A stretch of 60,501 nucleotides of DNA, counting the filler, from Hausera hauseri (Eukaryota): NCBI GenBank assembly GCA_046269625.1. It is 10 parts of 10 records of this genome, joined end to end, with 100 filler letters (N's around TTAATTAATTAA, not from the genome) between each part and the next. Parts side by side here need not be neighbours in the genome. Positions count along the whole stretch, not along the records: positions 48,670 to 56,056 come from JBJURY010018121.1; 9 more parts are not named here. One strand, written 5' to 3'. The translations under genes were made by a program, and so were the position numbers. The notes beneath the pieces are model-generated. The model was given only the letters and a program-made list of their open reading frames with translations. It made no database searches and had not been told where the DNA came from. Below, piece after piece: positions 1,391 through 57,946 of this stretch (position 1 is the first letter of the stretch; every line of letters starts with the position of its first letter).

Positions 1391-1416
1391 TTATTCGTGG
1401 GTTCATTTTCTAATCG

Positions 1417-1430
1417 TATTCCGGCTTCTA
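1417..1430 (-). repeat. 14-bp direct repeat (TATTCCGGCTTCTA), second copy at 4110-4123; encodes E-A-G-I on minus strand
   Basis: Exact match read from the sequence at both positions, flanking the helical-domain + glycoprotein block. Confidence 0.8.
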
Positions 1431-1580
1431 TTCGTGGTTTATGTCATTGTCTTTCCATTAATGCAGACAATTCCTGTATGGTGGGAATAATGGCTTCCGT
1501 TGCGTTATTGCCTGTCTTTTATGATATATACATGGGCAATTCTTATACATTTTCTCAATAGTTTCGGTTTATTTGAGGTA

Positions 1581-13759: not shown

Positions 13760-14418
13760 TTACCATAATCCAACGAGAAAGCCAACGTAAATCGTCGATT
13801 GAAAAGTCTTGAATTTGGTGTATCAAATTCTATTTCGAAAAAACTGTTATAACACGTTGTATCGTCCATTACAACATGAGGCACGATTGATGAGACTCCT
13901 TTGAAAACATATCCGGTTTGTGTATACTCTTTTTATATTGTTATTCCGTTGGATTCGAATTTTGGGATCGAAAATAGGTAATTCTCCAAGTGATTGCTTT
14001 GCAATTTATATCTGACAAAAACTTTTGTATGCGGGCAGGAACAGAAATTTGGCAAACCAAATAAAAAGATAAAATCAACAATGTGTCAATTCACAATAAC
14101 ATGACGCAAAAGGAGAATACGATTGTGATTAAAAACGGTTACAAAAATATTATAAAAAAATCCAGCCGGACTACGCACAAATACCAGTATTACCTTATNN
14201 NNNNNNNNNNNNNNNNNNNNNNNNNNNNNNNNNNNNNNNNNNTTAATTAATTAANNNNNNNNNNNNNNNNNNNNNNNNNNNNNNNNNNNNNNNNNNNNTC
14301 TTGGAAAGCTTCAATATCTATAAATGCTGTCGCCATTACTCAATATTTATGCGTAGAATCATTATTTGTTTATAACACAAACGAAACAATTAACTATTAT
14401 TATTATCATAACAAATCA

Positions 14419-14883: not shown

Positions 14884-14989
14884 TGTATTTATTCCTACGC
14901 CAATAATAAAATTACACGTATATTTATACACGTTAATTGGGTTGATGAAAGAAAAACGGTAAGAGAAAATTTATTGATAATTAAAATGT

Positions 14990-20900: not shown

Positions 20901-21699
20901 AAACGGACGATCGAAGGGTCAAACAAATGAACGAATGAACCAACGTAGAAAGAAAGGAATAAACGAATGAACTATCGAAAGAACAAACAAATGAACGAAT
21001 TAACGAAAGGATAAAGGAACGAAAGGACGAAGGAAGGAAGGAACAAACGAACGAACGAACGAACGAAGGAACGAATGAACGAAAGAATGAAGCAACGAAC
21101 GAACGAAAGAGCGAACAAACGAACTATAAAAGCAATAAAGGAACGAAAGAACGAACGATGGAAAGAACGAACGAACGAGCGATCGAAATAACAAATGAAT
21201 GACGGAATGAACGAACGAACCGGACGAAGGAACAAACGCAGGATCGGGCGAACGAAAGAAAGAAAGAACTAACGGCCGAACGAACAAATGAATGAATGAG
21301 CTAATGGACGGACGAAGGAACGAACGAAGGAACGAACGGAAGGCGAACAAATGAACGAAAGAACGAACAAACGAACCACAGAAGCAATTATGGAAACAAC
21401 GAAGGAATGGTCGAAGGAATGAAGGAAGGAGCTATTTAAAGAACGAAGGAAGAACCGCATGAACGAGCGAATGGACAAACGAAAGATTGAACAAATGAAA
21501 TAACGAAAGAAATAACGGGTGATCGAACGAAGGAACAAAAGAATGAAGGAATGAACAAATGAACGATCGATCGAATTATCTAACTAACGAACGAACGAAA
21601 GAATGAATGAACGAAAGAACCAACGAACGTACGAATGAAGAAACGGACGAACGAAAAAATGAACGATCGAACGATTGAACGAACAACCGAACGAACGAG
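14990..21699 (+). repeat. ~6.7-kb degenerate purine-rich (GAAC/GAAA/GAAT/GAAG)n satellite with higher-order repeats
   Basis: Continuous GAAN tetramers; block at ~18065 repeated at ~18905 and ~19757; block ~20440 repeated ~21190; ACGATGTA-containing unit recurring 15040-17340. Confidence 0.97.
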
Positions 21700-27527: not shown

Positions 27528-27866
27528 NNNNNNNNNNNNNNNNNNNNNNNNNNNNNNNNNNNNNNNNNNNNTTAATTAATTAANNNNNNNNNNNNNNNNN
27601 NNNNNNNNNNNNNNNNNNNNNNNNNNNTGAGATGGAAATTAGAATGTTAAATTGAATGTTCTGAATAAATATTCATCCGCTTAAATCGACTTTTTATTTT
27701 AGAAATTTAATCGGAACAGAGAAAAGAAAGCACATATCATTACTTCCAAAGTGTTTCAAATGTTTGCGATTACCAAAATATAACAATATGTTGTTGGTGC
27801 AAAGAAATATAACAAATAACATTTCAATGCACCAACAAAACCTGGTTATTAACTTTATATCATATA

Positions 27867-28394
27867 ATGTTATTAATTACTTGCGAGGATCAACGACCGT
27901 CATACATGCACGACAAAAGGACTACAATGAACATTAATATTCCAATGCTAGAAGATCTTCCTATCTGTCACACTAATCAGCAAACTGAACAGTTTGTTGC
28001 CACCTTTCACCAGGTTTATCACACTATGTTTAACCGGAGCTTCAATTTTGATATATCCACAAATTTCAGCCTTACAAATTGGCTACCAACGGTGCGGTCC
28101 TGTGTTGAACAACTTGTTAGACTTTACCAACACGGTATCATCTCATATGAAGAATGGCTGTGCACCGTAAATGAGCGAAAAACGCTACCTAACGGCAAAG
28201 TATGGCACAAACATTCTCTATTGTGTGACCTCAATATCAGTCGTACCTATACATGTTTGAACGCTAATATTCGAGGGACAGTGTATGCAGAACTTGATAT
28301 TTTCGTGGAGGAAGAGAACGTCAAAAGAGCACGCCTAGCTAAATTCAGTATGAAGAACCAAAAAGTACTTGAAAACTTGGCAGACAACGAGTGA
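27867..28394 (+). CDS. Hypothetical protein (175 aa), intronless
   Basis: Open frame with ATG and normal composition; no motif recognised. Confidence 0.3.
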   Translation: MLLITCEDQRPSYMHDKRTTMNINIPMLEDLPICHTNQQTEQFVATFHQVYHTMFNRSFNFDISTNFSLTNWLPTVRSCVEQLVRLYQHGIISYEEWLCTVNERKTLPNGKVWHKHSLLCDLNISRTYTCLNANIRGTVYAELDIFVEEENVKRARLAKFSMKNQKVLENLADNE

Positions 28395-28659
28395 GCCTGT
28401 ACATTATATCAAACTACATGTTTTCTATCGGCGATTTAATATTGCTATACCAATGACAAAACAAAGGTAACAAAGGCTTTCCATGCATACAAAAGACAGA
28501 GTCCGGTTTACTTGCAATATGTTGATGTAATGTTTTCTACCTGTGTACCCGAAACATACGTAACGTCTGTGGATAAATCCAAGAAGACTTTTAAGAACAC
28601 TTTGGCAAAAAATTTTAATAGAAAATTCGATCATCCGAAAGATACGTTAAATAATCAAA

Positions 28660-30200
28660 ATTCGGCGCCGATTTTCACCAGGCAATCGAAAGCCACTCTG
28701 ACGGTTGGGTTCTGCGACAGGGATGCCTTTACCCCGGTGTTTCGTCGCAGCTGCGGCGTGACCGAGGCATCGGCTGCTCGCCTAATGGCCGTGGGGCAGG
28801 CGTCTCAACGCTCGGGGTTACCACTCCACGCCCTAGGCACTCACTCGCCCACTATGTTTTCATTTGTCTTCCAGAATAAATATATACACATATATTACAC
28901 GCACACAAACCACACCACACCATTTGTATTCTCTTGTCACAAAGCACCTTCCCTTTAAAAACTTCTACTTGAATCTCAACGGATTCATTCTTCAACCCGC
29001 AGACTATTCACCTTATACCACAACTTTCCAATCTTCTCTTAACATCATAACCGTAACACCTCGCCTTCTTGGTGGTTTTGACATAAACCCAGATACGTCG
29101 GAGCATAAAAAAATTCACTCATACCCAGTCATAGTGATAAAATCACCTTCCAACTCCTCAACATTCCAGTGTATCGATTTTTTTGACAGCCAAAACTCCC
29201 CACGGACTTGGCTAGACTTCCATGCTCGTTGACTAAAAGCTCAAAATCTGACAGATTCTTTCTTAAAAGCCAACAGTCTTCTTATTTACATTCCTTCTTC
29301 TTTAAGTTTACGTTTATCAAATCTGGCGGATATCTTTGCTGGAGGGGACTCTTATAACTCACTTCATGCCGCAGTTCTACAGCTTACTGAATCATCTATC
29401 GATGAAATATTTCAAAAACTCTAATGAAAACGTATTAGATAACATCAAACCGTCCGAATTTCTTCGCACGTCCTTTTCACAGCTCAGCAATCTGGGTGTA
29501 ACTCAAGACCACAATGCTGATCTCTTACGTCACTACTTTCTCCAATCGCTGCTGAAAGAGATCAGGGCCCTGCTTACTGTCATTGAGGACAGTGCCTCGC
29601 TGGAAAAATTAGCCCAACTGGCGGATAAAATCTTTGATATACTACATACTCAAAATTTACTCAGCATTNNNNNNNNNNTACGTCGAAAACGTTGCATTAA
29701 GGCAAGCTATTACATCAATAAGAGACAAATTAAATCAAATTACAGTGCCGCGCAGATCTTTTTGCCACAGGGCGACAACTCCCCACCAGATCAAATGGTT
29801 CTTCGCGCAAAAGTTCTGTACGTGGCCACATCTGTTTTTTTCATTCCAAATTTAAACAACGCGCCAATAAATGTTGCATATGATGCAGATTTTATAATCA
29901 AAACTTTACATCAAATGACTCCGTCTGCGTTTATCACAACAAATTTCGCGACAATGCTCGCAAATGCCTACCAGGCTGTAAATTTTACAATTCTTCGGCA
30001 CAGTCAAACTTACCAACGCATTCAAAAAACTAACAATGCCATCAGAAGTAACGGAAACTTCTGGTCAAGATGCAAACGCTTCATTAAACAGACATACTGC
30101 ATTCTTTGCTGTCTTTACACTGCAAGCTACCACTACGTCCAAAAATTCTTCCATCACTTTTTTTATTGACACTGGAGCTGCAGCATCACTTCTGCTGGGA
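28660..30200 (+). mobile_element. Ty3/Gypsy family copy, 5' fragment (GC-rich leader, Ubl-Gag, frameshift site, protease start)
   Basis: ATG 28854 MFSFVFQN../..NFYLNLNG..ITVTPRLLGG (GG 29071-29076); Gag LLRHYFLQSL..IRALLTVIEDS; AAAAAACTAA 30024-30033; FFIDTGAA ~30160-30185. Confidence 0.9.
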
Positions 30201-31049
30201 CCCGAGTGTTAGTTGGGGAATCCGGTAAAAGTCCGTTCAAAAGTCTAAATTAGTATAAATAAAATTGTGCGTGGGTGTATGCATGAATATAGAATGTGTT
30301 ATAAATTTGGCCGATAAATATCCGAATATATATAATATAAATTCCAAAAGATTAGACTCGAAAACTGAAAAGTAAAATGGTTGACAAAATCAATTATATT
30401 TTTAAATCAAAAATTTATAACTTTAAATAACTATCTTTACATTATTTAAACAAATTTGTCCGCATAACACGATACAAATTTTCCTTTCTTTTCATAATTT
30501 GCCCTTAATAGAACGTTATCACTGCTCACTAATATACACACAAAGATTGACAAAAAATAATACTGTTAATTAACATAAACGGGAAAAAGCAACATTTGAA
30601 ATAAACGAGCCATTGATTAAAATCTGCCGAAGTATATTTACACATACAAAATATGATCACCGAAAGCAAGAAAAAAAACAAAACAAAATAATATTAACAT
30701 CGGATATCGTCAGTTAAAGAATATTAAATGCTTTAAACTTTACTAGTAAAGATATTTCAACAAAAGGTAGGAGATAGTCAAAACCATATCGTACGAATGT
30801 TTATTGATAAAATCAAAATATGACTTTGAGAGGTCGTCGAGGACATTCAAACTCCACAGACTATTTATTTTCATGGTATATATATATGTATAAATTAGGA
30901 GCTTGTTATTCATTGTACTGAACAAAATAAAAACAAAATATGATAAAGACTAGATATTCGATGAACACACAGAGACAGACACACAGACAAAACATTGTTG
31001 CTCGATCGAAAGTTCGTTTTGTTTTCGTTTTCTGATCAAATGATAACGG

Positions 31050-32267
31050 ATACATAGTATACACATTTATATTTGATTCCCTCTGACTCATGTTAACTGA
31101 TGTAGTTGAGCTATGGATGGGTTTCACCATACATTTCTTTTTATGATAATTGTACGATGCGTTCCAGAAATATTCTTTACCGCATTTTTCACAACAGTAT
31201 TTGGCTTGATCTGAATGTTTCCCATCGAGATGCTGTTTGAGACTGATTTTCGTCATAAAACGACTATCACAAAAGTCACATTCGAACGGTTTTTCATCAT
31301 GGAGATTGTATGAGACGGTTTGCGGTTGTTGAGGTTGAGAATGCCTTATTGGTTGTTTTGGCAATTGATCTTGTTGTGACGCAACGGTATTGGCTACGGA
31401 TGCTGCGACCGCTGTTATGGACTGGTTCAGTCCGACGTTACTGCCTTTAGTCGACGTTAATTATGGGAAACTTGACATTGACTGTGTGTTAACTGCTGAA
31501 CTAGGCGGTAACAAATTCTGAATGAGATTGTGAACGTTCCCGCTGACACTTTGCATATTTGACATCAACTGACTGTGTTGAAGAGACTTGTAGTCGATGA
31601 TTTTCTGAAGTAACGTTGCTCGAGCAACCTGGAAACAAGTTCGTTTGTGTTCGTATATATTCGACAGGATATTTGTTTTGAACCCGCAAACGCACTGTTC
31701 GGCAACCTTATGGGAAAAGACTTTTTGCGACGGTTGCATCCGAGAGTCCGGACGACTGAACGAACTGGATATTGCAGAATAACTAAAATTTGACTGTTTC
31801 GAGTCTTGAGATTTATGGAGTGCTAATTTTCGTTTACTGCAATGCTGTTTGTGGGTGTAGAATTAGGGAGGCCATCGGAAACGACGGCCGCAATATTTGC
31901 ATTTGTGCCGCGGTGGAAAATGCAAGTGTTTGTGCTGACCGAGCAAACCTTTGGATTTAAAATTCTTTTTGCAATGTTCACATTCGTACACTTTGCCGGA
32001 CTTTTTTGCTTGGTCTTAATTGCCTAGTGATGAGGTACTAACAGACGGACTGCTATTTGCAACAGTGATTGGAAGACGTCCTTTGTCGTTATTGAAAGCA
32101 GATGAATTGTGAAAATCGAAATTGATAGCGTTAATTGAGTAATCGGTAATGACTGTCGAGGATGAATCTTTATTTAAGAGATGGTTTTCGCTTTTAAATT
32201 GATGACATACTAAAATGGGAATTCGATTGACAGAGTCGAGTATTATAATTGTTCGGATCTGAACTGT
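31050..32267 (-). pseudogene. C2H2 zinc-finger protein (five fingers) with three in-frame TAA stops
   Basis: One frame: YECEHC..HKHLH, KCKYC..HKQHC, CVCG..HKRTC, FECDFC..HLDGKH, YCCEKC..HKKKC; TAA at 32016, 31863, 31461. Confidence 0.85.
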
Positions 32268-32382
32268 TCATGGGAAAGAAATGAAATTTTACATACATAG
32301 AATTTAAATAATTTTCTGTTTACATTCAGCTATTAGAATTTTCTTCATTGCAGCTAAGAGTAGGAATATCAGAGCCCGCCTA

Positions 32383-35300
32383 TGTGGCCGACGCACCGGC
32401 AGTGGACGCCCGGCCGTGTCCAACCGAATGGGTCTGAGGGCGACGGTCAATGTAGGCACCACATCACCACCCCCCAGTGACAAAGTTAAAACTATGAAGA
32501 GTAAAAGGATAGAGAGAAAAAATTGCAAAACGAAAAGTGTTTGTGTCAGCTGAGCTTAATGGGAATAAGACGTTCGGTACCTTCGACTGATTTTCCCCTG
32601 CTATACTTGCTGTATGTGACTTTGCGTGTTGTGTCTTTATTAAGATTGAGGTTGGGGAAAGAATTTGTAGATTTTGGTGTAGGTGTTGTGTCGTGCTAAG
32701 ATGAGTCGGAATAAAGAGAAGAAGAGGGAGAAGAAGGAAGAGGGATTGTTGAAGACGGGTGGTTAAAGGCATTGAAAAGAGCGTTACAAGATGAAGGAGT
32801 GATGACAGGTGTATTGGCGGATAAAGAATGAGAGGAAAAGTTGGAGTAGAGTTTGGAATTGTGTTGAGTAAGAGTGGAGGAGGAAGATAATACAGAGGGA
32901 GTGGTAGGAATAGAAGTAGGAAGTGTAGAAAATGATAAAGCAGGACTAGTCGTAGAAGAGGAAGGTGGAAATGGTGCAGCAATAGATATCTTGATAGCAG
33001 GGAGTGGAGGAATGTGAAAAGAGGTTGACGTGTCGATTGGTAGGGTGTCGTTGACAAATAAAGCGGGCTTTAAGTTGATAATATGTACTGCAAGTTCTTT
33101 GCCGTCTTTAGAGATAATGGTGTTGTGTGAGTGTAGCTGTATCACTTTGTAGGGTCCCAGGTACCGTGGTTGGAAAACCCAATGCGCTTGGTTCTTTAGC
33201 CATACGAATTTTGCCCAATACAAATCTTTGGGTAAGTATTTTCTATCTTTCTGAAGCAGCCTGCAGACTGTGTCTTTGCTGAACTCGACGAAGTGATTTT
33301 TGCGCCGCCCGTATCGTCTCATCCGTAGCAGTGTCGTCTAGGGCGGTTAGTTCGAATAATTATCGTACAGGAGCTCCGAACAAGGCTTTAGTAGGTGAGC
33401 ATCCTGTAGAAGTGGACGGAATGTTCCGCCAGCCGAGCAGAACGAAAAGAAGAAGATTCATCCAACTAATGTTGGACTCTGCAAGGATTCGTAGTGACGT
33501 TTTCAATGTTCGGTGGAAACATTCAAGAAGGTCATTCAATTGGGGTGATAAGGCGTGGTATGTGTGCGATGTATCCCCAATCGGTTAACAATGGATTTGA
33601 ACATGCTGGATTCAAACTCTAAACCCTGCTCCGTGATGATGAAACGAGGTGATCCCAACCTGCTAATTCATGTGCGAATGAAAACGTCAGTTATAGTGTC
33701 AGTAATTATGCTCTGCAGATGTATGGCTTCTGGCCATGGCGAGGAACCGTCCATCATGGTGATGAGGAATTGATGACCGTTGTCTGGAGGAAGAGGGCCA
33801 ACGATGTCGATATGCACGGATTCGAAACGCAATGTGCAGGGAAAGTGGAATAGTGATGGCTTTAAATGCTTAGCTGTTTTGTATTTTTGGCAAGCCACAC
33901 ACTCCTTAACGCATGCCTGCACATAAGAATGCATTGACGGCCATGGTACTTGTCGATGGAGTAGACGAAAAGTGGCTTTAGCACCAGGATTGTGTAGTGA
34001 ACGCACGTTGTGAAAAGCTTGCCTTTGCAATGATGGTGCTAGAATTATTCCGGAATGGCCTGGTTTGGAGGTGTTTAAAGCCACGCCGTCAACAATTGTA
34101 AAAGACGTAAAAGACTTAAGCATGTCTTGAGGTGGCTGGTTCTGTTTAAGTTGATCTAGCGTAAAAATGGGAGAAAAATTAATCGAACTAACCAACCTAG
34201 ATAAAAAATCAGCAATCAAATTGTTAACCCCGTTAATGTGTTTAATATCGAAGTTGAATGTCAATAAGTATGATATTTGTCGTTCTTGGCGTGTGGCAGG
34301 TGTTTCATGGCCATGATGTTAAGTAAGGGTTTGTCATCAGTTTGTAAAGTGAAATGACGAGCGACCAGTAGGTGTGAGAAATGCTTTAAAGCGAGAACGA
34401 TGGCTAATAGTTCACGGTCTAACGTGGAATATCTGGTTTCAAGTGCTGTCAGCTTGCGAGAGAAAAATTCTAATGGTTGATTTTCTTTCTTGTGGATTTG
34501 GTGGAGTACAGCGCCTACAGCAGTGTTTAACGCGTCTGTAGTAAGGATGAGTTCTGCATCAGGCTTCGGAAAAGCTAGAATATCGACGGTTTGGATTCCT
34601 TCGCATAGCATGTCAAATTTGTCAACCAATTCTAATGTCCACTGGATTGGCTGATGTTTTTTGTTGCCGCTTAGGTGTGCAAATGGTGCTGTCAATTAGG
34701 AGCAATATGGTATATATTTATGTACAAAGTGTAGTGTACCAAGGAAGCTACGCATTTCGGTGGTCGTCCGTGGCAACTGGATGTTTTAAGAGTTTCGACT
34801 CGGTCTAATTGCAGGGAATGACCGTCTGGTGTAATAGCATGGAATAAAAAGTTAATGCGCTTTTTGAAAAAATGGCATTTGTCGAAATTGACTTAGAGGT
34901 TATGGTGGTTAAGACGTTGGAGTATTGAGAGAAGATGTTCCTCATGTTATTTGGCCGAGGATGAAACGACTAGGATATCATCAATATAAGGGTGTGCAAA
35001 CGGGAAATCGGAAAGAATTGAATCGATGTGCCTCTGAAAAGTTTGTGCGGCATTTCGCAAACCGAATGGCATAAACAGGTATTCGTAGAGGCCAAAAGGA
35101 GTAGTTACTGCAGTTTTTTCTATGCCTTTGAGTGCTACCGGTATTTGATGGTATGCTTTAGCTAAATCAATGGTTGAATATTTGGTGGTTGAATTAAGAC
35201 GATTCGAAATATCCTTGATGAGTGGTAAAGGGTATGCATCCATGATAGTCAAGTTGTTAAGCTGTCGGTAGCCACCGAATGGTCTAAAAGTATCGTCCTT

Positions 35301-37720
35301 TTTTGTACAACGTGTAGAGGTGATGACCAAGGAGATTCGGAACGGCATACTATGTCGGAACGTTGTAGTTCAAGAAATTCGGCTTCAACAACCTGTCTAC
35401 GACGAGGTGACAGAGGCCGTACTTTTTGGCGTATCGGACGTTGGTGCAGTGTGACTATGCGGTGTCAAGTGCTGTTTGCGGGAGTAAAGGTACGGTCTTT
35501 TTTAAGTACTCGTTCACATGATGTGTTGCCGAACTGTTGTAAAGTTGTAGGTAACTGTGAGAGATTCGGTGAAAGTGGTGAAACGGCTTAAGTAGTAGCA
35601 GATGCAATGTGTGAGTTGTTTGGTGATGTGCAGTCAAGTAGTATTTGGTGTAAGATGGTTGAATTGAAAATGGTGTTGGATAAAGTATTGTTGTCGAATG
35701 AGTTAACGTTGGTGGTAGTACCACAATTATCGACATCGAACCTCGATCGTATATCAATATTATTATTTAAAAATTTACGAATGGAATTATTGTTACAAAA
35801 ATCAAATTATTCCCTGACTTTCTTAAGATTGACTTCCGCATTCCGGTCGACTGCGCGGTAATCGAAACGCTATTTACATGTCTAGAAATGTCGCCAGTGG
35901 TGCCGTTCCTCAAACATCGTTGACTGCAGACAACCAGTAAATTATAGTGTTAGAGAAAGTCTGACCCTAAAATTGCCGTCTAGACGTTAGCGACTGTGAA
36001 CGTCCAGTGGAAAGGTGTTGAAAAATTTTGTAAAGAGAAACATAATTTAGCCGTGCCAAAAATGTGCAGCGGTTGGCCTGAAGTAGTGTATAATGGCTTG
36101 ATCTTGAATGGAGAAATTTGTGCAGGGAAGGTTTGTGGTAATAAAGAAATCGCTGCACCTGTATCGATGAGAAAGTCAAGAGATTGTGTTGTAGGAGCAG
36201 TGATTGCCGCCTTTAGTGTAAAGACAGCAAAAGAGACGTGTCGGTGTTGAGAATGTGAAGTTGTGCCTTTGCCAGAGTTTGCCGTGACTTCTGGCGCCGA
36301 ACTTAGTTTTTTTCGAAGGGTAAACTAGGACGACTATTAGAAGGAAAGGCAGTACGTCCGTCGTTCGTGTTGGATTTAAAAGTGTAGCCTGGAATACATT
36401 TACGAGCTTGGTTTTTGAACCTTGCATGGTAGATGCAAACAACTGTGTCCGAGGAAAAATTCTTGTTGTAAACTTGCACCCTAGGCAGCACTTCTGAGTA
36501 TTAATGTTAAATCTGCTGTGGTAATAGCAGATCGACGAACGCGCAGGCGATGGTGAACAGTTTCTAGACATAGAACGGGCGCGGTCAGCGGCAAAACCTT
36601 TTCGACGGGACAGTGGCAATTCGTTTATTTTATTGTTGATGTTGTTGATTGTTGCGTGTAGTGCAATGTTTTCAGCACGTAGCTGATTACGCTGTTGTTC
36701 TATGGATTTATTATCTTTAGCGGCAACTGTTGCTAAAATGACTGGTGGAGAATTTACGTGTAAGACATCATATGTCCTATCGGCTAATTCGGCCAATTTC
36801 TCAAGCGGCGTGGAGTCCCCCACCACGGTAAGTGGGGCCCGGATTTGGATGTGTAACGCATTAAGGAAATAGTGGCGCAGTAGATCTGAACCGTGCTCTT
36901 TAGTGACGCCAAGGATATGTAGATGTGCTAAAGAGGTGCGTAAAAATTCTAATGGCCGTTGGGAGCCTATCACGTTGTCATGGAAGAAACGTTGTATAAT
37001 CGTGTCCATGGAAGGTTCACTGATCTTTAGGACTGCGTTAAAAAGTTGGGAATATGGATCTGAAAGTTGAAAGATTTCGATGATGTTGTGAATGCGGGTC
37101 TTGATGTTATTAGGCAGTAGGAAAAAAATATTATGTGCTGTAGTTAAAGAGTCACTGATGTTATTTGCCTGTAGCCAAAGCTGATGGAATTGCAACCAAG
37201 TTTTGCTACAGCCTTGGTTGTCAATGAAAAATTCGGTGCAGTTAGGGAAAGGAACGGAAGAGGTAATAAATGGGAGGTTGCTAGCAGGGTTAGGAGTTGG
37301 TTTTTGGAACAATATAACAGGTATTGGTTTCGCGGTGGTTTTATCCGTGGAGTCAATGGTTGGCGAAGATTTCATGCCACCACGGATACAGAGATGTATG
37401 TGGAAGCAAATTTGGCTTGAGAAAAATGGTAGGGTTCCGGTGAGAGGTATGATAGCGCCGTTATGGGTGAAATAAAAATCGGAAGAATTGGGTAAAAAAG
37501 AAATGGAGATACGAAGGGTTGGGATGTGTGGATGTGATGTATTAAGGGTGTAAATATGTGTATTGTTGATAAAAAGAAAATAGAAGGGGAAGAAGTCGTG
37601 CGCCTGGGACGTGGTGTGGGGCCGACGCGAAAAGCGCCATCCGACCAACCGGCGCAGGGTTGACGGTCGAGTCTTCCGCCACAGCGGGGCGAGCAACAAA
37701 ATGCAGGGTGGCCGAGTTTC
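32383..37720 (-). mobile_element. Near full-length copy of the Ubl-Gag Ty3/Gypsy family (degenerate gag, PR, RT, RH, IN) with very short GC-rich terminal repeats
   Basis: FHIHLCIRGG|MKS (GG 37376-37381); Gag; slippery AAAAAAC 36306-36312; FLIDTGA; RT YIDD (34947-35348); RH LTTDA (34261-34695); IN (33668-34264); GPY (32696-33322); PPT GGGGGGTGGTGA ~32464-32475 then TGTGG..CCACA 32383-32463 resembling 37615-37683. Confidence 0.95.
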
Positions 37721-37734
37721 CCCTCAAATCGCAC

Positions 37735-38800
37735 AATATCGGGATGTTGTCTGGTATAAATGTTTGGAATATTTGATCAAGGTTTCGAATTCCGTCAGAA
37801 AATTGATAAAAATGTGAATAATTTGTAGTTGGGTTCATTAATCCACATCGAACAAAAGCAATAATATCCGCTGCGATTCTTGGTAGTTTGGACAAAGACG
37901 CAAAATGTAAACTTTCGAAAAATCGTTTACAAACATCTAAGGGCCTTGGTTGTGCTGAATAAACGTGAACATTACTACGTAGTCGACTTTGGTGACGTTT
38001 ACAGTTAAAATCTGGGGGCATCTGTGGCTGAATAGCTACAATGACTCTTGCAACAGAACGTATCAGTCTCGATACAACTCGTTTTACTTTAGATAATTTA
38101 TTTGATATTTGCATTTTTTCATGTTGCAGTTGTTTATTAATTGTATTCAAAAGAATATCAACAGATGATGATGGCGTTTTCGCAATCAAGGTAAAAACAA
38201 ACTGATCCAATTGTTCCGAAAAACTTTGATAATTCAAAAATACTTCATCGTCGGAAAGCGGGTTTATTCCATTGGTGTTAAACATATTCACATTATTAAC
38301 AATACCGCTTAACCAATCTGATTTATCACCAGCGAGAAATAATATTTCTATAGCGGACCAGTTGGACAAAACTGAATCAAGAGCGTTTACCGCAAAATTA
38401 GATGGTTCAAGTCCGTATTCAGGCATAGGAGGATCATATGATGGATGCTGTGGTTCCAATATACCAGAGTGTGGAACAACAGCTGCGTTATTAATATTAG
38501 TATGTCTACCATTCAGAACAGATAACGGATAACGCCTATTTGAATTTCTGTATTGTTTGTGTTCTCTGATCTGTCTATCAACAGCTTTAACAAGAGATAG
38601 TAGAAGGTGTTCCTTTCGACGATTCGGCAATGTAGCAAAGTCAGTGTGGTGAAGTAGTTTTTTAGTAGTTCTTGCCTGCTAACAATATCTCCAATAATCA
38701 ATGCTTTACAGCGACAATTTTGCCAACAATCACAATAAGCTGTTGGTGAAGTTTTCTTTAAATGGCAATTATGACCTTTGTGACAGCCTTTGGCACATTC
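37735..38800 (-). pseudogene. UBR5: UBR5/hyd E3 ligase fragment (second half of UBR box and downstream region), intronless, frameshifted, ending at the Gypsy leader
   Basis: [69 protein letters not shown]. Confidence 0.9.
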
Positions 38801-38938
38801 TCGCTTGCAAACCTCACGCACACATTTGCGGATAGGTAGGAAAGAGGCATTAATAATTTATTGATAAGTTTCAGCGCCGCACTTGTCACAAATGTAAGTG
38901 GCTACTTTCATCAAAGGTTTAACTTGAGTAGCCCGAGT
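38801..38938 (-). pseudogene. MCM7: MCM7 N-terminal zinc-finger fragment joined in frame to the UBR5 fragment
   Basis: [43 protein letters not shown] matches MCM7 TR.SEVKP.M.VATYTCD.CGAETYQ. Confidence 0.8.
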
Positions 38939-47436: not shown

Positions 47437-48569
47437 TTATACAATGATGGTTCCGTTTTTCGTTATTTCAACCCCGGCATCAAATACACCGTAAATGTAC
47501 ATCATGCTAGATTGCTCCAACGCTTTAGCAAAGTGAACATCCAGTCGTAGGTTTCACTGCTTAGGTAATTGTGTCTCTTCAACGTCATAATCCGGAGCCA
47601 GGAGAAATGTGAAGAATGGGTAGGTGGACTTGAACAAATCCATCGATATGCCATTGTTGTCATTTATTTTGAGCAAACATATGTTGCGCACGATAGATTG
47701 CATACATGTGCAAACATAATCATTAGATGCAAAGTCCCGTTTGTACGTCTCGGCGAAATCTGCATTCCGACCCAAACTGATGTAATTCACATTGCTATGG
47801 GTAAACGTTTCCGAATTGGTCGTATAACTGCCCCTTTGTTGAACAGTCGTTTGAAATGTAACGAGAACAAATTTCGGCAATCACATGTCGCCAAACAGTG
47901 CGTCCTTGTAAAACGTTGTCGAACCTTTGGGTATGGCGAAAAAGACGAGTTCTCTGAATTGTATCGGGTAACAGACATTTTGTGTTTCCAAGCCCAATCG
48001 ATGTCCTATGAGCACAGATGGTTCTACCTTTACTCGACGTACGTATAATCGTGCCTCGGTAATTTTCAGTATGGGTTTAAGCTATGGAACGGCGGTTTTC
48101 AAACAAGAGACACTGTCGCTGCGTTTGAGCCGAATCATGGTTTTACCCCGGGCAGTAGGTATTTCGGCTGATCGAAAAAGTCAAAATACAGCGGTACACA
48201 TATGGTAAGTTCTTTTGATTCTGCCACCCATGCCTAACGGTTTGCCGCTGTGGCATCGTATCCGATGGTTTTCGTCAAATGAGTCGTTTTCATGTCTGCT
48301 CTGTAATTCAGGGCTGTTTTAATGGGTGCTTTGCTACTGTATAGACTTGTGTTGTCTTCTATCTTGACGCTGTTCAGAGTTAGTGAAGCCTTCCGGAACA
48401 GTATGAGGAAAAGGTAATTGGCCGGTGTGGCAGTGTCTGCAGTAAAATCCGTTGACGAATCCTTTTTCACAATGACTTTTACATAGAGTAGGGTATCGTT
48501 CAAATCCAGATATTCATTGTCCGATGCCATAATGTTGAATTGAATGTCAATGTTATCGTCCGTTGAAAC
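47437..48569 (-). pseudogene. Polinton/Maverick (adintovirus-like) double jelly-roll major capsid protein, degenerate
   Basis: EYLDLNDTLLYVK, PANYLF..LF....L.LN, YSSKA.IKT.LNY, PKFVLVTF, F.H.NV, F.L.PD, LRLDVHFAKAL. Confidence 0.85.
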
Positions 48570-48669: not shown

Positions 48670-50045
48670 GTTGAAACGGCCAGTAGTTTGAACGATATTG
48701 CCTGTACCAGAATGTGCCGTGGCATCTGGTGGCATTATTGGTTTTTGAGACTTGTTGGTAGAAAGAGGAAGAATAGTGAGTGCGCGGAGGCGACAAAAAT
48801 GGAGAACTAGAATTCCTTTTATAATATTTACATCCTGGCACGCATGACTTAGCCTTGGACTGGTACTTTGCGTGATAGATGCCGATTGGATTGTCTACGG
48901 CATATCGTACATCGTAGAATCGACAGCCTAAAACACATTTCCTTGCATTTTTGAGGAATTTGTTGTGAAAAAAAACACGTCATTTTACCATCTCTAGATT
49001 TAGAATGGGAAGAGTGCCTAAAAAAACTGCGATTGCGAGAAGTACGATTTTCGCTTCCTCGGGGCACAGATAAGTCGCTGAGTTGGACTGTGATTGCAGA
49101 AATTGCTTGTTGTAGGGTATCGAATTGTTTCTGCATCATGTTTAATTGTTGTGCAAATAAAGTGTTGTTTGGCAGTGTGTGAGCAGTTGCTGCGGCTACA
49201 GGCTGCGAGTTATTGGACTGCAGAATATCAAAATTTTTGTCTGCCAATAAGGCGAGCTTTTCGAGGGCAGTAGAGTCATCTACTACAGTAAGCAAAGCTC
49301 GAATGGAGGTTGGCAAAGACGAAAGAAAATATCGACGAAAAAGATCGGCATTATTTATAGGAGTCACGCCTAAAGAGTTCAGTTGTGAGATTGCCGTTTT
49401 TAGGAAATCCGATGGTTTTTGATTTCCAATGGCGTGTTCGTTAAAATACTTCTGGATTATGCTGTCGATAGGAGGGTCGGTGATATGTAGAACCGATTCG
49501 TACAGCATATCATACGGGCTTGAAGAGGAGAGTATGTCAGCCAGATTACTTATCTGCAGTTTGATGTTGGCTGGGAGTAATGGCAGAAAACTGTTAGCCC
49601 GCAGAAAGGGATCTGTAATATGATTGGCTTTAAGCCATTGCAAATGGAACTGCAGCCAGGTAAGACTAGAGTTCGTCTTGTCTAGAAAGAAATCCGTGCA
49701 GGGGAGATTTGGAGAAATTGTTGGTGTGGTGTCGACAAGACGACGACCAGATCTAGTTTTTGTTAAGTGTTCGGTAGAAGGATCAAGGTCTGATCCACCA
49801 CGAATGCGAAAATTTACAGTAAGAGTGATGGAATATTTCTCGGGTGCAAAGAATGAAAGAGAGTCGTAAGGTTGCAGAGTTAGACCGTTGTACATAAGGT
49901 AAAAATCAGAAGAGCCAAAATAAGAGGACAATTCAGTATAAAGAATATGAGCTGTTTGTTTGTGCGTAACCCTTAATGTGTGGACATGTTTGTTACTAAA
50001 AAAGATAAGAAAAGAGAGGGGACATGGCGCAACTGGGGCGGCACG
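48670..50045 (-). mobile_element. Ty3/Gypsy family copy, 5' fragment with the clearest Ubl-Gag ORF
   Basis: ..SNKHVHTLRVT..DFYLMYNGLTLQPYDSL..SITLTVNFRIRGG|SDL (GG 49794-49799) in frame with Gag to 48849; tandem CHCC motifs after a frameshift. Confidence 0.92.
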
Positions 50046-50222
50046 ATCGGTCCCTCAACCAAATCATTTATGAATGATGGAATACGGATAAGTAAGTTAC
50101 CTCTTGATGAGGGTAAACAATTCTACGAACCATCGACATTTTCGTTCCTTGTAGAATCGGGAGGTAATTCGACCATCTCCGGACCGACGATTCAAAGTTC
50201 CAGATTAAGAGGCCAGAGTGAT

Positions 50223-51938
50223 TCAGCCTGTTTCATTTCTCCTAATATTTTTCTTGAAAGAATCTTGACTTTCGAAGTCCGATTTAATAATGTTCATGTA
50301 TGAACCCATCGATGCTACAGTGACTAGTGTAACCATTGTTGGATGTTTAATGTAAATGGACTTGTTGTCAGTCATAATGAGTTGATAGTTTAATTGATTG
50401 TAATTTGAGATGTTGGGAGTCTTAATGGAACGATAATATAGAAAGAGATTTGTTGGGCAATTTAACATTGTGAGACAATTAGAGAGGTCACAATTATGAA
50501 AAAAGGACGTTGGATGTGGAGTAATATTAGTATTCACATTAGCTGTCAAGATCATATTTTCTGAATTGTAATGTAGCTTTATCTACTGCCCAATTTTCCG
50601 AATTATAATTTAAATCAATTAAAGAAGCGAGGAACTGATTAATCGGTATTACCATAGGAGTTAGTAGTTCTACAGGAGTTAGTAGTTCTACCTGGAGAAA
50701 TGTTACCTTTCGTAAATAAATATTATATGGAAATTTTTGTTTAAATTCTAAACTGACGTCAATCAATTGAATAAAATCATCAAGGAATAATTCATCAGTC
50801 TTGAACATGTTTTCTGACGTATATTGCTGGACATTTGTCGAAATATTTTCGTATTGTTTTTGCTAGATAGTTGTGCAGATCATATAAAAAATATATAGAT
50901 GTGAGGTACAAAAGAAATCGTCACATTTTTTACATCTATTATGTATATATTGAAGTACTTTATTGTTTTCGTTGGTAATTATTTTTGTGCAGTAAGACTG
51001 AATGTCACCTGATGGTGTCCGAGATTTTAGGTGGATAAATTTTTGTGCAAATTGAGTCCGAAGATTAGGTGGGTTTATAATAAATATATCCGGAATTGCA
51101 TCGGTAATGAATAATTTGATTGCAACAGGATATAAGCGACAGAAAACATCTACATCCTCATTTGTCACACAGTTCTATTCAATGTTATGTGAGGTTCGAT
51201 GATTATACTATTTTTATCCAATACCGTAAAGTTGTAATTATGATGGAATGCAACACCCTGTATATTTAATCTGCAGACTGATGGATATTTCACGCAAGTC
51301 ACCGTTTCATTGACTTTCTTTAGATATACTATACTATTTATAATGTGCAGATCAATTACATTACAAATCAGTACATTACAAGTTATTGTAGAATTCGTTT
51401 CAGCAAGATACGTCGTATGCTTTGGTTGTCTAATAAACTTTAGACAGACATCATTGTTTTTAAATATTGGGTTTGTGTATTGCAAATGGATGATCAAAGT
51501 ACCTTCAGTATAAAATTTACAAGTTGTTAGATTGAAGGTAGTACCGCGAACATTAACTTTTGTGCTTTTTGACTTTAAGAAAATTTTGTTTATCGTATAT
51601 ACATGAGTAAAACGGCAAATATACTCAGTCATATAAGTCGAGAAAGTAGGATAAGTATATAGATCTACCGTTTTGATATCGATTATAAGGAAAATTTTCT
51701 CTGTGCTTATCATTTTGTAGGGTATGATTCGTGAAAATATAAAATTGATGTAACATATCGATGACCATGTACTCTGAATGAAAGTGTTTAACATATATGT
51801 TAATTTTGAATTGCCCTTTATTATAATTTCACCATCAATGTATAGTGCTAAGAATGGATTTAGTACCTGCTTTTCTTTTAAAGTTAGAGGATAAGATGTC
51901 CATAATTGACAAATACTGCGCCGACTGTTCCATGTCAA
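50223..51938 (-). pseudogene. Cluster of closely packed unknown ORFs (257, 101, 89, 110 aa)
   Basis: Co-oriented, touching or overlapping, intronless; beta-rich composition; RCKKCDDFFCTSH Cys motif. Confidence 0.3.
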
Positions 51939-52319
51939 ATTAGCGGGTTTGGATTCAATTTCTGATGCCGTGTTTTTGTCGGCATAAGTGAAAGTATTGT
52001 TTCTTTTAACCCATGTTGCACCCTTTGTCGGTATTAAAAAATGTCACCATTGTTCATATCGTTTTTATCAATGTTAGGCCTCTGAGAAACAGAACCAATA
52101 TTTGGTTGGATTCCAGGAATTCGAAATGGATTGGGTCTCGACCGAGAAATAGTTTGCGTACCATGTGACATTTCATCGTTAGATTGTGTGTTGTTCCCAT
52201 AGAAGGACTTGGTTTAATATTTGTAATGGGATGCTTCGTGGATGATTTACCTTTTGACGATGACACATTACTTAAGTCATCATTTCCAACGGGAGAATAA
52301 TTAGTTTTAATTTCTGATG

Positions 52320-53320
52320 TCATATCCTTGGTCTCACCATTAACTTTAGCGCTTGTTCCAGATTCGACAGCACTTCCTGACCTAGTAACGCCTTTAGAGT
52401 CACTCGATGCATTTGTTGTAATGCTCTTTTGTTGTTCCTTTTGGCTTTGAGAGCTGATGACATTTTTAAAGCACTAACACTGTCTAATTTAGAGCTGTTT
52501 TCTAATGCATTATTGACTTTATAATCCAATAACAAATAGGTCGCAGTTACATTATTAAATTTAGCATTATACAGAAAATCGAATACTTCGTCTTTTGTAA
52601 ATCCTAAAGACTTCATCACCGCTAGTTTAACAGGGTCATCATAATTTTTCGTCAGTTCTTTGTAAGGAAGTAAATTATCGTCGTATCCAATATTAATCCA
52701 TTTATCCTTCATGACATAAGGAGGTGTGTATAGTTTCTGTGGATTGACAACAAGCATCATCTTTAACAACATCTCACAGTCAGTAGTCATGTAAAATGGT
52801 ATACGATATTTGCCTCTTAAAAGTCTTTCTCGTAATTCTAGCATATTGTTCATCGAACGGCAATGAACCGCTGAATAACGAATATAATATAACTTCCAAT
52901 GACCAAACGACAACTTCTGGACCTTCATACTTTCGACCTTGAAATAACTCTGGTGCTGCGTACGGAGGGATGCCACAAAATTTGTATAATTGTTTTTTGG
53001 CATCGAACATATTTGCAAAACCAAAGTCGGCGATTTTTATTCGATTGTCACTACCTAGCAATAAATTCTTGGCTTTTAAATCTCGATGAACAATGTTCTT
53101 CTGATGACAATATTGAATTGCAGAAATAATTTCACGAAAACTTGTTCGCATTTCTTTTCCATTAACTGGATAATCAAAAACTTTGCCTTTCGGTGCATAT
53201 TCCATTAACAAATAGACAGCGTTCGGATTCGATAACCTTGAACAACATAACGATATTCGGATGGTCCAAAGTTTTCATAAGTTTCACTTCAAGAAAAAGC
53301 TTTTGTAAATTCTGACACCA
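52320..53320 (-). pseudogene. MARK: MARK/PAR-1 Ser/Thr kinase, intronless, frameshifted (kinase + UBA domain)
   Basis: [74 protein letters not shown] ..ATYLLL. Confidence 0.92.
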
Positions 53321-54249
53321 ATTTAGTTCCATCAAGTAGACTACGAATGAATACTGAAGAGAGTAAAATCCAAAACCTTGATAACTAATTGTGATTTATT
53401 TTGAAAATTCAAATTCTATAACACGATCAATTTCTTAATATAACAAATTCTATTTGTAGCCATTCCAACATTGTTCTGACAACAAATCCCATTAATTATT
53501 CATGTCACCATCACGAAATTTGGCGTTTTCCTGGATTGTCTCATTTACAAAATACATGTTAAAATTTCTCTGATATCTGTGTTCAAATTACTGGAATTTA
53601 TCCAAATGGTATCGACAATTTTATTTCAAAAACTTTGGATCTATTTTCATTAACAATGAGAAATTAGCGTTCCATGTCTATATCACTAATCTTTCACACT
53701 TCCAAATTATTTAACATAAAACTTAACACAATTTACATATAATAAAATATATTCCAGTTATACAACAAAACCAAAAAAATTCTTCAAAAATCACAAAACA
53801 TGATTGAATTTTGTCGAAACAAAAAGACATTTAGTTTTCTCGCCATGAAATATCATCCGGCATGTTCGTATAAAAATTGGATGTAGTCCATGAAACAAAC
53901 ATTTTCAGAGAAACCGAGCCCTGGCATCAAATTGGAAAATGAGTAGTCTTCGTTAAAAATGTGATTACTCTGCAACGACAAATAAAAATTTATCCGTAAA
54001 AATTCAGCACGTTGGAAAGAGATGACGTTAACATTTCAATTGCCGGATATTAATGAAGATGAAGTAACTGTTGTATCTTTTTCATGGAGTACGATTCACC
54101 CCGAATTGGGAGACGAATAAGAGTGATTTAGTGATCGACAACTGGTACATTCCGTTGATTGAATTGTGTCCGCAATATTTGAGATTAATGATTTGCAAAT
54201 CCGGTGACGAATTGTGTCCGCAATATTTGAGATTGACGATATGCAGATC

Positions 54250-55620
54250 CGCGGCACCACAGCTGGAAGCAGCATGCAACGCATGCAATTTAACAAGACG
54301 TGTGCGGCCACTCCTACCGGTGATCTTTTATAATTTCCTAGGTTATGATTGTCACCATATACTGAAATGGACCATCAACGGATTTCCACAGTGGGAACTG
54401 TCTATAATCCCAACAACAATGGAGAAGTACCTGTCCGTGTCGCCACGCATAAACCGGTTCCAGGTACGCTTCTTTGATTCATTGCAATTTCTCAATGAAT
54501 CATTGTCGAAACTGGTAAATGCCTTGCCGGATGTGTCGATAACCTAAACACAGTTCCCCACACATATTGCACACAGCAAAGGCATATTTCCATATGACTT
54601 TGCAACATCATATGAGCGATTGCTGACAGCAGAGGAATTATTGTCGCGACGGACAGGCATCACAGAAGATGAATATCAAAGAGCACAAGAATCTTGGACA
54701 GAACTAGGCTGTAGAAACATGTAGGATTACATGCTCCAGTATCTCAAACTGGATATATACTTATTATCCGGTGTGTTCCGGGCGTTTTGAGCGAAAGCAT
54801 TGGCAGAAGATAGGCTGGCGCCACTTAACTTTTACTCAATACCCGGAATGAATTGGGCGTCAGCTCTAATGTCACTGGATCGGAATATTGAGCTATTAAA
54901 AGACCCGGAAATGTACCGAATGTTTGATGTTGGTAGCGGCATGACATTTTTCAACATGCATCAGGTCCGTGCTACCAATACCACATCACTGCTGTATATT
55001 GATATTAATAACCTCTACAGCTGGGCACTTTTGCAACCCTTGCCGTACGCTTCATTCGAACGGGTTGTCGACAGACAAGATCTGGACGACATAATGGTCA
55101 ACCTACCACAAGCAAACATGACAGGCTCAGTCGGATACCTGATGAAGGTCAATCTCGTTGTACCAGTTGAGCTGCATGACGCTTTGGACGATTTACCGGT
55201 AGCACCATTTAACCATTGTCCACCAGACTCAAAAGTGAAGAAACTGCTCATGACGCATGAACCGAAGCTGAATTACGTAATCCATTGGCGTCTGCTACAT
55301 TTCTACATGCAGCTCGGTGTTCGCGTTGCTCATCTGCATCGTGCAATCCGATTTGCTCAACCTCCCATATTCAAGGCGTACATAGATGTAAATTGGGAAA
55401 AACGAGCCGCAGCTTGTATAAGGTTCAAGAAGGACTATTACAAGCTGAAAAATAATTTCCTGTACGTAAAAACAATGGAGAATCTGAAAAAGTGGCTCAA
55501 TGTACGCCTGTGAAATAGCGAAAAGCGGTTGGTCACGTACACGAGTAAGGCGCAGTTTCGACGGTCAATGCATATTGCCAATGGATTGGTTGCGATGCTG
55601 TTAAACAGGGAAGAAGTCCA
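54250..55620 (+). pseudogene. Polinton/Maverick protein-primed DNA polymerase B, degenerate
   Basis: AACNACNL, PVIFYNFLGYDCH, EKYLS, RFFDSLQFL..SL..LV, KGIFPYD, YIDINNLY, YKLKNN.LY.KTMEN. Confidence 0.9.
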
Positions 55621-56156: not shown

Positions 56157-57316
56157 ACAATTGGTAGTGGTAGTTGTGAAAATGATTACAGCAACCACGA
56201 CGCCTTGAGTGGTGCTGCAGATGAAGAGTCAGATCAGCCTGTTAACTACAGTCTGAAGTACCAGGATGGAACTAGCAGCGACAGAGGCAACAAAGTGTCA
56301 GCTGGTAGTAAAATGAACGTGTCCTATAACCACTTAACATCGGTTGGTGCTGGTTCCAATTTTAGACCTGGAGTAGAGCATGTCAGATCTGGCAGTATGA
56401 ATGAGTGTAATCGTCTGCTAAACAACTCAGATGTTCATGATAAAGTTATCACAGGAAGTAACTCATGGTTGAACTCATCCATTTTGGCCCCGCTCAGACC
56501 TGTTCCAAACCTTGTGCGTAACCACTTCCACACTCCTCAAACTTACCAGTCTGCAGGGATCGTCAGTCATCCTCAATTCATAACGCCTCACGGACCATAT
56601 ACTAACACCCACTTTCATCCAAGAGGTTATATCCATTCACCACGCCCTGTTCAGAGTTCAAACCTGTGTCTTCCATCTAGTCTTGTTGTCACTAATTCAA
56701 GATATGTACAACAAAGAAAGCTGTATAGCAACAGTACCAACAAATTCTGTACTGCCCAAGCTGCACACCAGAACTCCAGACATATCCATCCTATTCAGCA
56801 GTCAAGCACGTATGTTGAAATTTGTCTTGACTCTGTTGTTGACCAGTCAACAGATTTTAGTCACAGTTACAGTGAAGTCTCTGAAGACAACTGCATCGAG
56901 GACTATCAAGATCAGCCAGTCAACTGTTCTATGCATTTCCGTGACAGAGGAGGAAGAGACAACCAAGAGATGGGGAATTACAGGGATGAAAGGCATTGTG
57001 TAGAATGTGAATATTCCGAGGCCAGGCGCACAAACGAACATCTTGATATCAGTTCTAATGATGACCAGGTTCGTACCTTCTGCACTGAGGGAACTCCATA
57101 TTTGTCTACAGCCACGTCTTTGACAGATCTGACTCAGGCGGGTAAGAACGAAAGGGAGGAGGCAGAAGTGAACCCCCGGAAGATAAGCGTTGACACTGAT
57201 AGAAGTGGAGCCAGAGGAGATGTGGTGACAGCCACGGCTAGTAGTTTGGGAAGTAAAACAACAGTCAGACACACAGGATCAACATTAGTTGATCCATGTA
57301 GGAATCAGAGTCTTTG
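56157..57316 (+). CDS. APC: Adenomatous polyposis coli (APC) central exon with beta-catenin-binding repeats
   Basis: 15-aa repeats DQPVNYSLKY, DQSTDFSHSYSE, DQPVNCSMHF; 20-aa repeat DQVRTFCTEGTPYLSTATSLTDL; GTAAGT donor at ~57316. Confidence 0.85.
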
Positions 57317-57946
57317 TAAGTACCAACGATTTTTTGTCTAAATGTGTTATGTGTCTATAATATTCATTTAATATGGGTAAATTAAAGGTGCGGGTGATCG
57401 ACAGAATCACCGAACCACCAACGAACTCGTCCCTTATCTTCCTTTCTTTGTATTTAACATGTATAAATCAAGTATCACAGCCTAATATTGACACCAAATA
57501 TTATTGTCACATCGAACGATCTGAAGACAACTCAAAATATAATTCCGATTAGTAATATGCAAATGTAAATCAAAATGCGAAACCAAAAATGTTTACAGAT
57601 GCTATCTGCATTGGTGAGCCGCAATATAAATCTTTAGGTAAGGCTGGAGGAACTTTATTGTCTTTCGGAGTAATGCTACCGGAAGATATGCGGTTACAGG
57701 ACAACGGAGTATAGTTTGTTACAGGATTGGTGGTGGATGACAACAAGTTATCTCAAGATGATCTTAAAGATTTGTTTTATTTATTGGAGATAAGTATAAT
57801 GTGGGAAAACGTGATCTTTTAGTACTTAATGGACTAGTAACGGTTGGCGAAGGTAGATTACGAGTTTGAGTTCGAATGGATGAATGAAGAACAAAATTGA
57901 TTCATATGTGTAATTTTTGTTTGTGATTTGGTGTTTCTTGAAGGTT

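Follow-up and report, generated by a model that had tools for sequence, protein, structure and literature searches.

A ubiquitin-fold domain ending in Gly-Gly precedes Gag in CsRn1-type Ty3/Gypsy elements and may act as a spacer cut by host deubiquitinases

Why would a retrotransposon carry a ubiquitin-like (Ubl) domain directly in front of its Gag? The question is raised by a 60,501-nt stretch assembled from ten records of the Hausera hauseri genome (GCA_046269625.1; hereafter the window), in which the initial annotation had placed four di-glycine tails before Gag. All four were found with the reported sequences and coordinates, in the copies named c49 (TLTVNFRIRGG followed by S; GG at 49794-49799, minus strand), c12 (HLHIHFRIRGG followed by I; 12566, minus strand), c37 (FHIHLCIRGG followed by M; 37376, minus strand) and c29 (ITVTPRLLGG followed by F; GG at 29071-29076, plus strand), and the internal D/NFY-x3-NG block was likewise recovered in 4/4. 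These copies belong to a single Ty3/Gypsy family, represented five times in the window with 64-79% DNA identity where alignable; in the fifth copy the contig edge falls within Gag. They had been described as highly diverged and on different contigs or strands, and they are not four independent samples: c12 and c37 are 78.8% identical over 2.6 kb (2569 nt), and c29 and c37 lie on the same contig. With c12 and c37 so closely related, the number of independent lineages in the window comes down to about three. The features of the elements are as follows.

4737-9157, plus strand: fifth copy, from the end of Gag through PR, RT, RNase H and IN to a G-rich, polypurine-tract (PPT)-like run at 9149-9157 (Pfam; 5' end off the contig)
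12566-12787, minus strand: Ubl spacer of c12, RIRGG before I; frame shift at the leader/Ubl boundary
28852-29076, plus strand: Ubl spacer of c29, RLLGG before F; frame shift within the domain near 28890-28900
32467-37375, minus strand: Gag-pol of c37, ending at a G-rich, PPT-like run (32467-32475)
37376-37597, minus strand: Ubl spacer of c37, CIRGG before M; frame shift at the leader/Ubl boundary
48797-48973, minus strand: two CHCC-type zinc knuckles of c49, decayed and in another frame (tblastn of the relative P0001)
49212-49691, minus strand: Gag capsid domains of c49, DUF7041/CsRn1 type (helical, pLDDT mostly >95; 45% identity to P0001)
49692-49793, minus strand: disordered linker after the GG of c49 (pLDDT <50 at model residues 81-99)
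49794-50018, minus strand: ubiquitin-fold spacer of c49, RIRGG before S (AF2 model, Foldseek, VIA-align)

Judged by their sequence, the Ubl-Gag elements are CsRn1-type Ty3/Gypsy retrotransposons of animals. The window reads as animal DNA by its APC repeats and its UBR5 and KDM5 pieces. The Ty3/Gypsy order PR-RT-RH-IN after gag is seen in the fifth copy, where Pfam returned PR (weak, E 0.023), RVT_1, RT_RNaseH, Integrase_H2C2 and rve in succession. The DUF7041 capsid, which we take to be linked to the CsRn1 clade, is matched weakly in the window (Pfam E 0.053) and in 56/66 aligned members at E <=0.2, and the family profile search recovered canonical DUF7041 Gags and Gag-Pol. The knuckle CX2HX9CX3C, given as the signature of the clade (CsRn1, PwRn1, AgCR) in the CsRn1 paper (PMC2582038), has four matches in the window. 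A CHCC knuckle, a DUF7041 capsid and the PR-RT-RH-IN order are common ground with CsRn1, while the Ubl-Gag elements differ in having the knuckle doubled within Gag, Ubl-GG before Gag and a host-mRNA mosaic upstream; the word ubiquitin has 0 occurrences in that paper. A tRNA-Trp primer site, expected after the 5' LTR in the CsRn1 clade, was not found beside gag: six matches (at most two mismatches) compare with 4.1 by chance, and none lies in sense orientation beside a Ubl; the site may sit upstream of the mosaic. One exact primer-site motif occurs at 28812-28823 (minus strand), antisense to gag and in the c29 leader only. The window yielded no tRNA genes and no paired 5'/3' repeat that would mark LTRs (z at most 1.5), its contigs being 4-11 kb long with upstream ends that may be off them. 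A short LTR, with the GC-rich leader described below as the post-PPT sequence, was rejected after 26/300 shuffles scored equally high.

The beta-grasp fold expected by the initial annotation was borne out by structure models, Foldseek and VIA-align. An AF2 model of c49 built from a 66-row alignment shows strands 2-8 and 11-18, a helix at 24-35, and strands 40-44, 47-49 and 65-71, that is, a full beta-grasp with an extended GG tail, followed by the disordered linker (81-99) and the helical capsid domains; block pLDDT is 82-94 over residues 1-70. Foldseek ranked ISG15/ubiquitin best for the c49 Ubl (E 5e-5 to 5e-4, rmsd about 2 A), VIA-align gave Z up to 11.5 against ubiquitin-fold proteins, and the c49 capsid aligned with MLV CA-CTD (Z 9.9, rmsd 2.7, 81 aligned). 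The Atlas search also returned ubiquitin-family leads for c49, and no usable match for P0001 residues 96-185. Folded from four rows only, the domain gave a mediocre model (pLDDT 68, all Foldseek matches >=0.001), with ubiquitin-fold proteins still at the top; single window segments had no Pfam ubiquitin match and a poor PDB sequence match. According to these models, each of the four copies encodes a predicted ubiquitin-fold domain that ends in GG before Gag. Given the support for the beta-grasp and the conservation of GG far outside the window, the feature is not due to chance.

That conservation was seen in a profile search of 1.84 billion protein representatives, which gave 1131 matches; the best 150 plus P0003 (151 in total) were examined. 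In line with the selection on the di-glycine proposed earlier, Ubl-GG recurs across these relatives: 34/151 score at least 12 bits with the Ubl profile (31 seeds, 3 not; best 150 of 1131 plus P0003), and two further ones of the 151 retain the tail only. A doubled CHCC per Gag occurs in 35/151 (among the matches listed). Where such double-CHCC Gags have at least 70 residues before the capsid, Ubl-GG is present in 26/26, the N-termini of the other nine being too short to judge; ten Gags that have the room but carry a single CHCC, or none, lack it (all among the matches listed). Gags whose record begins just before the capsid may conceal an uncalled Ubl. Pfam ubiquitin gave an independent match in 13/66 aligned members. 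By these counts Ubl-GG appears to be a trait of the whole clade.

In capsid trees, computed by a quick method with short-core rows and about two thirds of the lower-ranked canonical Gags omitted, the 35 Ubl rows form one deep group, and P0050 and P0083 fall within the canonical group. A single clade for all Ubl rows was rejected (p-AU 0.026, 35-row subset), which implies at least two gains, or a gain followed by losses. P0050 and P0083 are single-CHCC canonical CsRn1-type Gags with Ubl-GG outside the main Ubl clade, and their Ubl is a candidate second origin. Scans for related loci gave 0 loci in viral contigs and 0/95 candidates in genome contigs (the alignments being too diverse for the scan); L001 and L002, from the metagenome-contig scan, turned out to be bacterial false matches, and searching proteins by word index yielded no more than 3, 3 and 9 of them. 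P0003 joins a bacterial DUF5777-type N-terminus to the C-terminal half of a Gag of this family and is probably a metagenome mis-join.

As to the source of the domain, a FUBI-like module had been among the suggestions, and this was not upheld: both the family profile and the Pfam matches indicate ubiquitin itself. Small profiles searched against PDB placed SDE2 best at non-significant values (E 0.057 and 0.15), the large profile, of which P0032 is part, ranked ubiquitin, and the Sde2 Ubl family is absent from the best 25 of 83 Pfam families listed for the 66 members. An origin from SDE2 or FUBI was therefore set aside, the large profile (P0032 included) and Pfam both favouring ubiquitin. The Ubl of P0032 is identical to ubiquitin at 55/76 residues (72%) and to the Ubls of six sisters at 19-28%, the capsids of the same pairs being 58-72% identical. 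Most simply, ubiquitin was here captured anew in place of the older domain, which likely happened at least once, and the case suggests that the capture step recurs.

What lies upstream of the Ubl bears on how it is translated. Ahead of the Ubl, each of c49, c37, c29 and c12 has 1.3-3.4 kb of decayed frame on the sense strand, whose openness was expressed as breaks/kb, the minimum number of stops and frame changes that a reading through the region has to pass. In 3/4 copies this region holds pieces of UBR5, KDM5 or MARK.

12790-14198, minus strand: upstream stop-poor frame of c12 (5.7 breaks/kb versus 11.7 antisense)
27813-28851, plus strand: upstream mosaic of c29, with a KDM5 piece (27813-28391), a further piece and the leader (4.4 breaks/kb)
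37600-38938, minus strand: upstream mosaic of c37, an MCM-like piece and then a UBR5 piece (1.9 breaks/kb)
50025-53400, minus strand: upstream mosaic of c49, with a MARK-like kinase (52780-53274), UBA pieces, and ORFs 51165-52043 and 50223-50582 in the Ubl frame

The UBR5 piece of c37 is intron-free (E 7e-23) and joined in frame with the MCM-like piece (MCM_OB E 0.0054, weak), and its 378-codon frame crosses the leader to the start of the Ubl. In c29 the frame of the KDM5 piece (E 2e-19) is that of Ubl strand 1, and the leader shares 34% identity over 108 aa with the in-frame extension of P0001. The kinase piece of c49, presumably MARK, matches Pkinase at E 1e-37, the UBA match being weak; the region has 3.7-4.8 breaks/kb in sense versus 12-15 in antisense, and its stop-poor stretch ends after ~3.4 kb. 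No PDB match was obtained for ORF 51165-52043, and a reading of it as env was dropped, having neither Pfam nor PDB support; for the frame upstream of c12, Pfam and PDB returned no source gene. Taken together, upstream regions require 1.9-5.7 breaks/kb and gag-pol 1.4-3.9, against 11.6-15.1 for antisense and 10.7-17.6 for three control stretches, and 0/200 resamples were as low as the observed upstream values. Low breaks/kb alone are no proof of read-through, since copies of coding mRNA contain few stops even when no selection acts on them. Contigs of two runs (2530 X1 and 111 X2 records, the depth of which is no copy number) span the greater part of the region upstream of c49. At several variable sites there, 10-12 contigs of X1, which may be the source sample, suggest that this region is repeated with the element. 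Neither a 5' LTR nor a primer site or start codon came to light in the window, so that the mosaic is putatively part of the element. A GC-rich leader of ~190 nt (12760-12950, 28680-28870 and 37570-37760; z 7.5-9.1) is conserved in c12, c29 and c37, was not detectable in c49, and could be a packaging or primer element that is read through as protein.

The Ubl had been described as the N-terminus of Gag; it proved usually to be internal to a longer frame. No in-frame ATG at or before Ubl strand 1, back to the previous stop, is found in 3/4 copies, and the remaining one, c29, has a Met before strand 1, yet its frame stays open ~135 codons further upstream. Among the relatives in the matches listed, at least 100 residues precede the Ubl in 19/35, at least 200 in 11/35 and at least 400 in 4/35, compared with 3, 0 and 0 of 98 non-Ubl Gag controls; fewer than 30 precede it in 9/35. 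Host domains were recognised in 5/19 long upstream regions (CNOT1 with Rrp44/DIS3, histone H2A, SCC3/STAG, 5'-nucleotidase and HSP90) and not in the other 14/19, and only one pair among the 21 regions compared showed similarity. These relatives are predicted proteins, and where gene callers permit introns a long N-terminus could be stitched together; P0004 uses 2988/3554 bases and P0015 3816/4702, which leaves little room for introns.

The same data can be read with the Ubl as a leader that is cleaved off and sits at, or close to, the true N-terminus, much as in ubiquitin-ribosomal protein fusions, starting at its own AUG or at a near-cognate codon in the GC-rich leader, the host pieces being passive cargo or neighbouring retrocopies. 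A Met does stand at the Ubl start in P0164, as one stands before strand 1 in c29, and the conservation of the ~190-nt leader in three copies would suit such a start. In every window copy the frame is interrupted somewhere between mosaic and Gag (in c49 by stops upstream), and the long frames of the relatives rest on gene calls. Against it, ubiquitin position 1 is never Met in the 26/26 rows (of 35) with a residue there, always I, F, V, L or Y, with P0164 as the exception at the Ubl start; the upstream extensions far exceed those of the controls; P0001 and P0152 have leader and Ubl in one frame; and the frames of the host pieces agree with that of the Ubl or the leader. We regard this reading as unlikely, if the most serious of the rivals, and prefer one in which active copies would translate mosaic, Ubl and Gag as one continuous precursor.

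Residue counts for the tail and exit position refer to 40 aligned sequences, window copies included, and those for the surface to 35 rows, with relatives taken from the matches listed. Position 72 is R/K in 31/40 (R in 26/40) and position 73 is L/I in 39/40, in agreement with the earlier idea of a captured ubiquitin-type module with a conserved deubiquitinase (DUB)-type tail; position 74 is variable, with R in just 13/40. The residue after GG is S in 17, M in 6, N, T and G in 3 each, A in 2, and D, V, Q, K, I and F in 1 each. G/S/A/M/T thus make up 31/40 there versus 28% over the 11 positions that follow (p 1e-10, uncorrected for kinship), Pro occurs in 0/40, and primary destabilising residues in 3/40, two of them from decayed window copies. 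Residues such as G, S, A, M and T mostly lie outside Arg/N-end rule targeting, and their excess supports the suggestion that the Ubl tunes the N-terminus of Gag. In sequence and model the family has the exposed R/K-L-x-G-G tail, with no Pro behind it, that is typical of a DUB-cut precursor. We consider it reasonably probable that the spacer is cut by host DUBs, which would free Gag from a variable host-mRNA mosaic.

Could the domain instead stay uncut, as a folding or binding module, or be processed by the aspartic protease of the element? The conserved fold core (L43, L50, L56, Y59 and I61), the variability of residue 74 and the presence of a protease in the element would all allow this. Type II Ubl domains that are not cleaved, however, usually lose their GG, and the sites cut by retropepsins usually have hydrophobic residues on either side. 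GG in 26/26 Gags with room, L/I73 in 39/40, the missing Pro and the disordered linker form a pattern expected of selection for DUB cleavage, which makes an uncut domain improbable.

In contrast to the tail, the surface has decayed. I44 is T/S in 22/35 Ubls, R42 is Y/F in 24/35 and retained in 4/35, and K48 is retained in 12/35, so that the type I ubiquitin surface (the I44/L8/V70 patch, R42 and the linkage lysines) is mostly lost, P0032 being the exception. Sister Ubls are 19-40% identical versus 51-72% for their capsids. The proposal that the element releases a conjugatable or decoy Ubl fares poorly on these data. Made its main purpose, with the free Ubl conjugated to host proteins or acting as a decoy for DUBs, E1 or ubiquitin receptors, it would gain from the C-terminal GG that cleavage exposes, from R72 in 26/40 and from the one near-canonical member; the altered I44, R42 and K48, the divergence of sisters beyond that of their capsids, and the arbitrary N-terminal mosaic that the released piece would bear all speak against it, and we hold it to be very improbable, slightly more so than an uncut domain. 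Codon comparisons partly confirmed the purifying selection anticipated for the Ubl: pN/pS is below 1 (0.47-0.76, with 0.29-0.47 for Gag), whereas 2/6 Ubl intervals include 1, and an unguided DNA test found a significant third-position excess in 2/6 pairs. The codon evidence for constraint on the Ubl is thus moderate, and the whole pattern fits selection acting on fold and cleavage tail and not on signalling surfaces.

Under the preferred reading of a DUB-cut spacer, the steps would be as follows. Reverse transcriptase would switch templates onto co-packaged mRNAs and so capture host pieces; translation would start in or before the mosaic, so that Gag is made only where the frame is open and bears an arbitrary N-terminal burden; a host USP/UCH-type deubiquitinase would then cut after GG and leave Gag with a fixed, predicted-stable N-terminus. 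Capsid assembly and Gag half-life would thereby become independent of the upstream fusion. The spacer is likely there because of the host-mRNA mosaic upstream, and as ubiquitin would be needed only for fold and tail, its binding surfaces would decay. More tentatively, and with somewhat less than even confidence, we propose that capture of host mRNA has become a regular step in the life cycle of the lineage: an open, continually reshuffled mosaic at the head of the Gag frame would supply or follow the start codon, and a DUB-cut spacer, with at least two origins among CsRn1-type elements, would make Gag indifferent to the cargo. The cargo (KDM5, H2A, STAG, CNOT1, DIS3, HSP90, UBR5, MCM and a MARK-like kinase) could provide RNA self-camouflage or dominant-negative fragments against silencing. 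On this proposal the element would continually give rise to translated chimeric proteins. If the reading of a DUB-cut spacer holds, a retrotransposon outsources Gag maturation to host deubiquitinases, like ubiquitin-fusion technology, and can carry arbitrary translated host fragments without harm to its capsid; one testable system would then link gene capture by template switching with exon shuffling and the N-end rule. The ~40 natural and highly diverged ubiquitins, in which only fold and tail persist, would also form a set for defining minimal DUB recognition.

Ubiquitin inserts of pestiviruses serve as a host-cut processing site. In cytopathic pestiviruses, ubiquitin or ubiquitin-like inserts stand before NS3, often within mosaics (PMC13517609), which resembles the present case in that cellular ubiquitin was captured just before a viral protein. 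As described there, those inserts are sporadic, near-exact and found in single strains, whereas the Ubl-Gag spacer, set before Gag and heavily decayed at its surface, appears to be inherited across a deep clade of retrotransposons. LTR-mediated retroposition and Bs1-type chimeras also combine partial sense pieces of several mRNAs by template switching and are re-amplified, with the retrocopy replacing part of the element ORFs (PMC5131818); the Ubl-Gag elements keep gag-pol, and their pieces are likely read into Gag by way of a spacer. Sde2/SDE2 is made as a Ubl-GG precursor that DUBs cut after GG to give a defined N-terminus, and the Lys so exposed acts as a degron (PMC9508853 and PMC6486553). 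Ub- and FUBI-ribosomal fusions are, like SDE2, Ubl-GG precursors cut by DUBs. Unlike the GG-K of SDE2, the exit residue of Ubl-Gag is mostly small or Met, with Lys in 1/40. The nearest published element found is Burro, giant Gypsy elements of planarians with a polyprotein that carries a Ubi2/SUMO-like domain and host-like cargo domains; in PMC6431247 its CCHC Gag is N-terminal, the Ubl lies downstream between MATH and BCL-2, the cargo is fixed, and no GG spacer before Gag is described. Listings from an open-access literature library gave no description of a natural Ubl-GG-Gag retrotransposon, and the papers listed contain 0 occurrences of DUF7041 or PF23055.

A splice acceptor was considered and rejected, an AG after a pyrimidine run occurring in only 2/4 copies and behind strand 1. 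The PPT-like run of c37 is followed immediately by an intron-free stretch coding for C2H2 zinc fingers (30250-32465, minus strand; three ORFs in one frame, 4.5 breaks/kb, then an AT-rich tail), which may be cargo inside the 3' LTR. At 406-4446 (minus strand) a decayed retroelement places a Monjiviricetes-type fusion glycoprotein (Pfam E 5.6e-29) ~190 nt upstream of a frame that we take, from its motifs, to be RT-like. With an envelope-like gene ahead of RT, the arrangement is reminiscent of Burro, or else two elements have been joined. A decayed piece of protein-primed DNA polymerase B (Pfam E 4e-5) and ORFs that are presumably Polinton-like occupy 54068-55513 (plus strand) and 47557-48569 (minus strand). 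Positions 14940-21500 hold a 6.5-kb purine-rich satellite with a degenerate four-base period and extreme AT skew, and the open 394-codon stretch at 56157-57338 (plus strand), with APC 15-aa and 20-aa repeats, is probably a host exon.
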